A stretch of 284 nt of DNA from a phage. The notes under the pieces were generated by a model, which was not told the DNA's origin, did no database searches, and saw only the letters and a program-made list of their open reading frames with translations. The stretch lies in sequence record V00865.1; one strand, given 5' to 3'. The translations under genes were made by a program, and so were the position numbers. Positions 1-284 of the stretch are shown here, one piece after another. Position 1 is the stretch's first letter. Each line of letters starts with the position of its first letter.

Positions 1-21
1 ATTTGGCCGTCTCGATACTAG
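1..21 (+). CDS. ner: 3' end of a Ner-like DNA-binding regulator gene (Mu Ner / Nlp family); 5' end lies outside the window
   Basis: Frame 1 reads att tgg ccg tct cga tac tag = I W P S R Y stop (TAG at 19-21). IWPSRY is the conserved C-terminal motif of Mu Ner and E. coli Nlp as I recall them. Its position directly upstream of a MuA-like start codon fits the Mu gene order c-ner-A-B. Only six residues are visible, so the call leans on context. Confidence 0.5.
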   Translation: MWPSRY

Positions 22-24
22 GTG
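20..24 (+). promoter_or_regulatory. Shine-Dalgarno-like ribosome binding site for the downstream transposase gene
   Basis: AGGTG at 20-24, with a 4-nt spacer (cgct) before ATG at 29. It overlaps the TAG stop of the upstream Ner-like ORF, consistent with a tightly packed operon. Confidence 0.4.
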
Positions 25-28
25 CGCT

Positions 29-284
29 ATGAAAGAATGGTATACAGCAAAAAGAAGAGAGTTGCTCGGTTTGGCAGGTTACCAAAGCAAGCCACTAACA
101 TTACACGTAAGGCACAAAGAGAAGGCTGGGAGTTTCAGGCAGGTTGCAGGGACTAAAGGTGTATCATTTGAATTCAATATCAAATCATTCCCTGTCGCAT
201 TACGTGCTGAAAATCTGTTGCAACAAGGGAGAATTGAAACAAGTCAGGGGTATTTTGAAATCGCCCGCCCCACGCTGGAAGCCC
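29..284 (+). CDS. A: Mu-family transposase A (MuA/D108 A-like), N-terminal winged-helix DNA-binding domain; 5' partial gene running off the window end
   Basis: ATG at 29 opens an uninterrupted frame to position 284 (85 codons). Translation: [85 protein letters not shown]. The stretch [23 protein letters not shown] closely resembles MuA [25 protein letters not shown] (domain I-alpha/I-beta boundary) as I recall it. No in-frame alternative start exists at 2-28. Caveat: residues encoded by about 79-136 may be read in the wrong frame (see findings). Confidence 0.8.
   Translation, partial: [85 protein letters not shown]

Follow-up and report, generated by a model that had tools for sequence, protein, structure and literature searches.

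Which reading frame encodes the DNA-binding domain at the start of this phage transposase gene, and does the sequence as deposited describe a real gene? We analysed a window of 284 nt, the whole stretch of DNA under study, in which the frame beginning with the ATG at position 29 is open, as deposited, through to the window end. Reading the letters alone, an earlier note had claimed that positions 80–136 of this frame give a 19-residue peptide without the conserved tryptophan of the Mu DNA-binding domain, and that the shifted frame (codons from 70) gives 28 residues before a stop at 154–156. Translation agreed on the peptide and its missing Trp, and confirmed the 28 residues and their stop, a TAA. 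The note had further proposed that a composite of the two frames is the true protein and that the mismatch reflects either sequencing error or a real variant.

The window covers the ner–A junction of phage D108

A megablast search matched the whole window to positions 1251–1528 of phage D108 (GQ357916/NC_013594). Identical prophages in E. coli genomes matched as well, at 96.8% identity, and Shigella phage SfMu was the next-best match (88%). In the D108 annotation, the ner CDS (1050–1271) is followed by the CDS of transposase A (1279–3267; ACV50262.1), and the A start at 1279 corresponds to window position 29. The ner stop lies 7 nt ahead of the A start in each of three elements, D108, SfMu and the E24377A prophage, whose annotations call A a Mu transposase (1989 nt). 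The domain is placed at the N-terminus of a Mu DDE transposase, immediately after ner in the left-end early operon. The window contains the 3′ end of ner followed by 85 codons, counted as deposited, from the start of D108 transposase A, and D108 itself has the same ner–A junction and start codon. Three features make up this layout:

1–21, plus strand: last six codons of ner and its TAG stop (IWPSRY-stop), from translation and alignment to the D108 ner CDS
20–24, plus strand: Shine–Dalgarno-like AGGTG, 4 nt before the A start, read from the sequence, with a putative function
29–284, plus strand: 5′ part of transposase A, comprising the winged helix-turn-helix of subdomain Iα and the start of the linker, from the D108 CDS, PF02316 and PDB 1tns

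The AGGTG at 20–24 is likely to be the ribosome-binding site of A. It is overlapped by the TAG stop of ner (19–21). Window positions 1–25 were identical in 14 close relatives; in three further relatives of about 70% identity, the difference in the ner–A junction was confined to the spacer at 26–28. Scanning of either strand found no promoters or terminators in the window, and the minus-strand ORFs of the window (20–34 amino acids) were rejected as unsupported.

The recognition motif is encoded in the shifted frame

Two features distinguish the frames in the 5′ half of the window:

79–135, plus strand: stretch truly coded in frame 1, holding the long helix of the helix-turn-helix (HTH) and the conserved Trp; identical to D108 A residues 16–34
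154–156, plus strand: TAA ending a spurious 44-amino-acid frame-1 ORF (GTG at 22 to 156), from the ORF list and translation

The motif [LMV]P[KG]-x12-[GD]W, which reaches from where the long helix begins to the conserved Trp, is present in frame 1 at 79–129 and missing from the ATG frame. The comparators that the earlier note had given for its LPK-x12-GW signature were right: the sequences are LPKTSAGVIYVAKKQGW for MuA (PDB 1tns) and MPGSVAGVHYRANVQGW for the Mu repressor (1g4d/1qpm), both with the 12-residue spacing. Among the aligned proteins, the motif takes the form LPK...GW in MuA, MPG...GW in Mu c and VPK...DW in D108 c.

Translated in the shifted frame, 79–135 was identical to D108 A residues 16–34 at 19 of 19 positions. 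The composite reading proved to be the true protein, as it matches D108 A and is colinear with D108, SfMu, the E. coli prophage and 14 other relatives. Colinear alignment of related transposases with the 19-residue ATG-frame peptide had been named beforehand as the outcome that would speak against the shifted frame; the relatives do not align in this way. No protein besides the record's own translation contained that peptide.

Sequence variation among the relatives followed the same frame. The D108 frame and the ATG frame of the window coincide outside 79–135; inside it, third codon positions of the D108 frame become second positions of the ATG frame. In 79–135, 20 columns vary among relatives, and 13 of them are third positions of the D108 frame. 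Bases 154–156, read as a stop in frame 1, sit in the true frame inside ACT AAA (Thr-Lys), and the 44-amino-acid ORF at 22–156 was rejected as a gene, being a product of the shift alone.

The phage's own repressor provided a further comparison. The N-terminus of the D108 repressor aligned to the corrected reading with 56% identity over 55 residues (61 bits); the ATG frame reached only 39% identity and 32 bits. The stretch ATNITRKA of the shifted frame is identical in the repressor. The N-terminal domain of transposase A is paralogous to that of the repressor. According to a passage in PMC3820752, N-terminal similarity of the D108 repressor and transposase was the subject of a paper from 1986. 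The repressor N-termini of D108 (c) and Mu (1qpm/1g4d) comprise the same domain, but as part of repressors rather than transposases; in D108, the c gene lies on the opposite strand, upstream of ner.

Family scores also separated the two readings. We compared them with PF02316 (HTH_Tnp_Mu_1, the Mu DNA-binding domain), membership of which is set at a gathering score of 23.3 bits. The corrected reading scored 68.0 bits (residues 11–84, profile positions 2–76), whereas the ATG frame as written scored 32.3 bits over residues 35–84 only (profile positions 26–76); D108 A itself scored 74.2 bits. Because the match of the written frame starts at profile position 26, the HTH part is missing from it. 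The 44-amino-acid frame-1 ORF alone reached 17.4 bits, below the gathering score. Against PDB 1tns, the E-value was 1.5e-14 for the corrected reading versus 1.5e-7 for the ATG frame. The domain belongs to PF02316, together with MuA Iα and the Mu and D108 repressors. Relatives, codon positions, the repressor paralogue and family scores are four independent lines by which the shifted frame is real, and the frame under selection in 79–135 is that of D108.

Four differences separate the window from the D108 genome

Aligned to D108, the window was identical at 276 of 277 aligned bases, with 1 mismatch and 3 gap openings over 8 columns. Relative to the phage genome it has 6 nt gained, 1 nt lost, 1 nt gained and one substitution:

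52–57, plus strand: six extra purines in the run AAAAAGAAGAGAG (49–61), adding Arg-Arg; absent from 17 of 17 relatives
79–80, plus strand: T run one short (TT for TTT), shifting the ATG frame by −1 nt; the extra base is present in 17 of 17 relatives
133–135, plus strand: T run one long (TTT for TT), restoring the ATG frame; absent from 17 of 17 relatives
213, plus strand: T to A (AAATT to AAAAT), changing Ile to Asn (AEILL to AENLL), from the D108 alignment

Both single-base indels lie where they had been predicted. The expected 1-nt deletion near 78–80 is GGTTA in the window (77–81) versus GGTTTA in D108, and the compensating indel expected near 133–137 is GAGTTTC (130–136) versus GAGTTC. The purine insertion and the substitution at 213 had not been listed by the earlier reader. 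In the purine run, D108 has AAAAGAG versus AAAAAGAAGAGAG in the window, and the protein reads AKELL versus AKRRELL; the placement of the six extra purines at about 52–57 is arbitrary within the run at 49–61. The D108 repressor paralogue is also without the Arg-Arg insertion (gap at AK--EL). Codon 212–214 is ATT (Ile) in the 14 close relatives and TTG (Leu) in the three of about 70% identity, with an Asn codon in none of them; the MuA residue aligned to the Asn of the window is Leu. As written, 18 residues are replaced compared with D108 A (residues 16–33), and the corrected translation equals D108 A except for the Arg-Arg insertion and the Ile-to-Asn change. All four differences fall within 165 nt, the rest of the window being 100% identical to D108, and each sits at a homopolymer edge or inside a purine-only run.

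None of these differences found independent support. Our set of 17 relatives, which ranged from 100% to about 70% identity, comprised D108, SfMu, the E24377A prophage, 13 IMG/VR contigs and one gut-isolate genome; 17 of 17 carried the D108 state at all three indels. Two independent sequences (L003 and L006) matched the D108 genome at every one of the 278 bases, and two others (L008 and L009) were one base off over the same length. Natural relatives had 0 internal indels in 1 to 85 substitutions, compared with 3 indels and 1 substitution in the window. The segment was present in 45 complete E. coli genomes, and the best match among them (97.8% over 62–150) differed at both 1-nt indels. The three window-specific junctions had 0 exact matches in IMG/VR, where the D108-type junction, serving as a positive control, had 8. 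Likewise, the two frameshift junctions had 0 exact matches in JGI metagenome contigs, in a scan run without a positive control, and a scan of GTDB genomes returned two distant loci only. In UniParc, the exact 85-amino-acid translation of the ATG frame is entry UPI000009B38E, and clustering of about 15 billion proteins leaves it a singleton.

The shifted stretch covers a predicted DNA-reading helix

For a structural view of the D108-type N-terminus, we used an AlphaFold model of P0002, an NCBI protein of 127 amino acids whose first 84 residues are those of D108 A (alignment of 4 sequences). The model had a pLDDT of 87–92 over residues 1–60 and comprised a strand (4–6), a helix (20–30), a beta hairpin (34–39 and 42–48) and a second helix (54–63). 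In a Foldseek search, 1tns and 1qpm were the only significant PDB matches (probability 1.00, target-normalised TM 0.75). The D108-type N-terminus is thus predicted to have a winged helix-turn-helix fold like that of 1tns and 1qpm. On this model, the frameshifted stretch (D108 A residues 16–34) would remove the whole of helix 20–30 together with Trp32. In the winged-helix structures of MuA and the Mu repressor described by Clubb et al. in 1994 and Wojciak et al. in 2001, the corresponding helix is reportedly the one that reads the DNA.

MuA subdomain Iα (PDB 1tns/1tnt) has PF02316 and the LPK-x12-GW spacing in common with the D108 domain, at a sequence identity of 47% (Foldseek). In MuA, Iα binds the transpositional enhancer (IAS), and its deletion or disruption is tolerated only in enhancer-independent assays (PMC3362531). 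By homology with MuA, the winged-helix domain of D108 A would also bind the enhancer.

Two observations concern natural variants of this N-terminus. In three relatives of about 70% identity (L004, L017 and L018), a 13-residue segment up to the Trp is kept despite many synonymous changes, and the sequences diverge past the Trp (ESRVSSGSKGVSFEF...), so that conservation is higher in the helix than in the wing. The modelled protein P0002, from a contig of 2.4 Mb, has a D108-type A N-terminus, colinear over ~101 residues, beyond which an unrelated tail follows (DSTSTGKRGCTTICTG...). Apparently, this is a prophage copy of the transposase that has been truncated or frameshifted.

The 3′ part of the window holds a mosaic boundary

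DNA-level homology with phage Mu is confined to the 3′ end of the window:

223–284, plus strand: segment common to Mu and other Mu-like phages (17 residues), from DNA matches and a protein alignment

Mu matched the window at 223–284 only (93.7%), and the DNA matches of Yersinia Mu-like phages were likewise limited to 223–284. The DNA of phage Mu is homologous to the window from 223 on, but unalignable before it. Position 223 marks the right-hand border of the left-end module, which is immunity-specific and non-homologous. Three further loci (L021–L023) matched at 232–284 only, with 96% identity; there, a third type of transposase N-terminus (MLTHWVTAQECVGMSCFPKHEVSIRRNLEKL..., also in P0004/P0005) leads into this conserved sequence from about 232 on. 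As general background, the Iα domain is specific for the operator or enhancer of its own phage. It appears to be exchanged together with c and ner, within the immunity module.

Origin of the differences

The window is very probably a deposited and probably old partial D108 sequence that carries four base-calling errors. These would have arisen at the boundaries of homopolymer and purine runs, with six purines gained, one T lost, one T gained and AAATT read as AAAAT. Homopolymer edges and purine-only runs are where manual gel reading goes wrong. The lost T (79–80) and the gained T (133–135), 56 nt apart, would cancel out, so that the ORF from ATG 29 stays open and would have been annotated straight through. 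Such an annotation would place 18 wrong residues where the real gene encodes the long HTH helix and the conserved Trp. The window is in this respect like gel-era, manually read entries with compensating frameshift errors: it has paired 1-nt indels in homopolymers with an open ORF, its indels outnumber its substitutions, and its translation is a singleton.

Where the earlier note left error and real variant as alternatives, the evidence strongly favours errors over a real allele, as the differences occur in this record alone and are dominated by indels. If the record were correct, it would describe a natural or laboratory variant of D108, or a mutated clone, in which the −1/+1 pair replaces the HTH helix and the Trp. 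The exact restoration of the frame and the ORF that is open to the window end would fit such an allele, two frame-restoring shifts could in principle be a selected suppressor pair, and the change need not be lethal to the enzyme, given that MuA Iα is dispensable in enhancer-independent assays (PMC3362531). However, the allele would combine four independent changes, three of them indels, in 165 nt of otherwise 100% D108-identical sequence, whereas relatives with up to 85 substitutions have no internal indel. Moreover, none of the changes occurs in any other sequence of the collections searched, and the replaced peptide matches its own deposit only. We therefore regard a correct record as improbable, and somewhat more improbable still the specific case of a real D108 allele in which the −1/+1 pair, the Arg-Arg insertion and the Ile-to-Asn change make an enhancer-blind transposase that keeps its frame. 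A transposase of this kind would be modestly interesting; because Iα deletions have already been studied, it would leave the picture of Mu transposition unchanged.

Two other explanations are both extremely unlikely. Under programmed ribosomal frameshifting, or recoding of some other kind, the domain would be translated from two frames, and the one point in favour of this is the presence of a conserved peptide in another frame between two T runs. Yet in every relative a single uninterrupted frame encodes the domain; as they are colinear without a shift, the natural gene holds nothing to recode, and a singleton sequence could hold no conserved signal. We know of no precedent for a double shift of −1 followed by +1 after 56 nt. 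With the two-frame arrangement absent from all relatives, we rejected programmed frameshifting. Alternatively, the off-frame LPK-x12-GW could be a chance resemblance, the ATG frame being true throughout. The 44-amino-acid frame-1 ORF does fall short of the PF02316 threshold on its own, but chance is hard to reconcile with the identity of 19 of 19 residues to D108 A, the identity of ATNITRKA to the D108 repressor, the third-position variation that tracks the shifted frame and the gain of 36 bits in Pfam upon frame correction. We rejected this explanation on the D108 A identity, the codon-position variation and the repressor paralogue. Four base-calling errors in a D108 sequence thus remain the preferred reading.

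Implications

The biology at this locus is already known, and the outcome of our analysis is the diagnosis of a flawed database entry, so that its main importance is one of database hygiene. It also illustrates that frame-by-frame reading is able to place compensating frameshift errors within a base or two. If the differences are errors, 18 residues of UPI000009B38E are wrong across the DNA-recognition helix, and the entry also has two arginines that do not belong there and an incorrect Asn. The correct D108 sequence is available from the complete D108 genome; comparisons of the immunity-specific DNA-binding domains of Mu-like phages that drew on UPI000009B38E would be misled.
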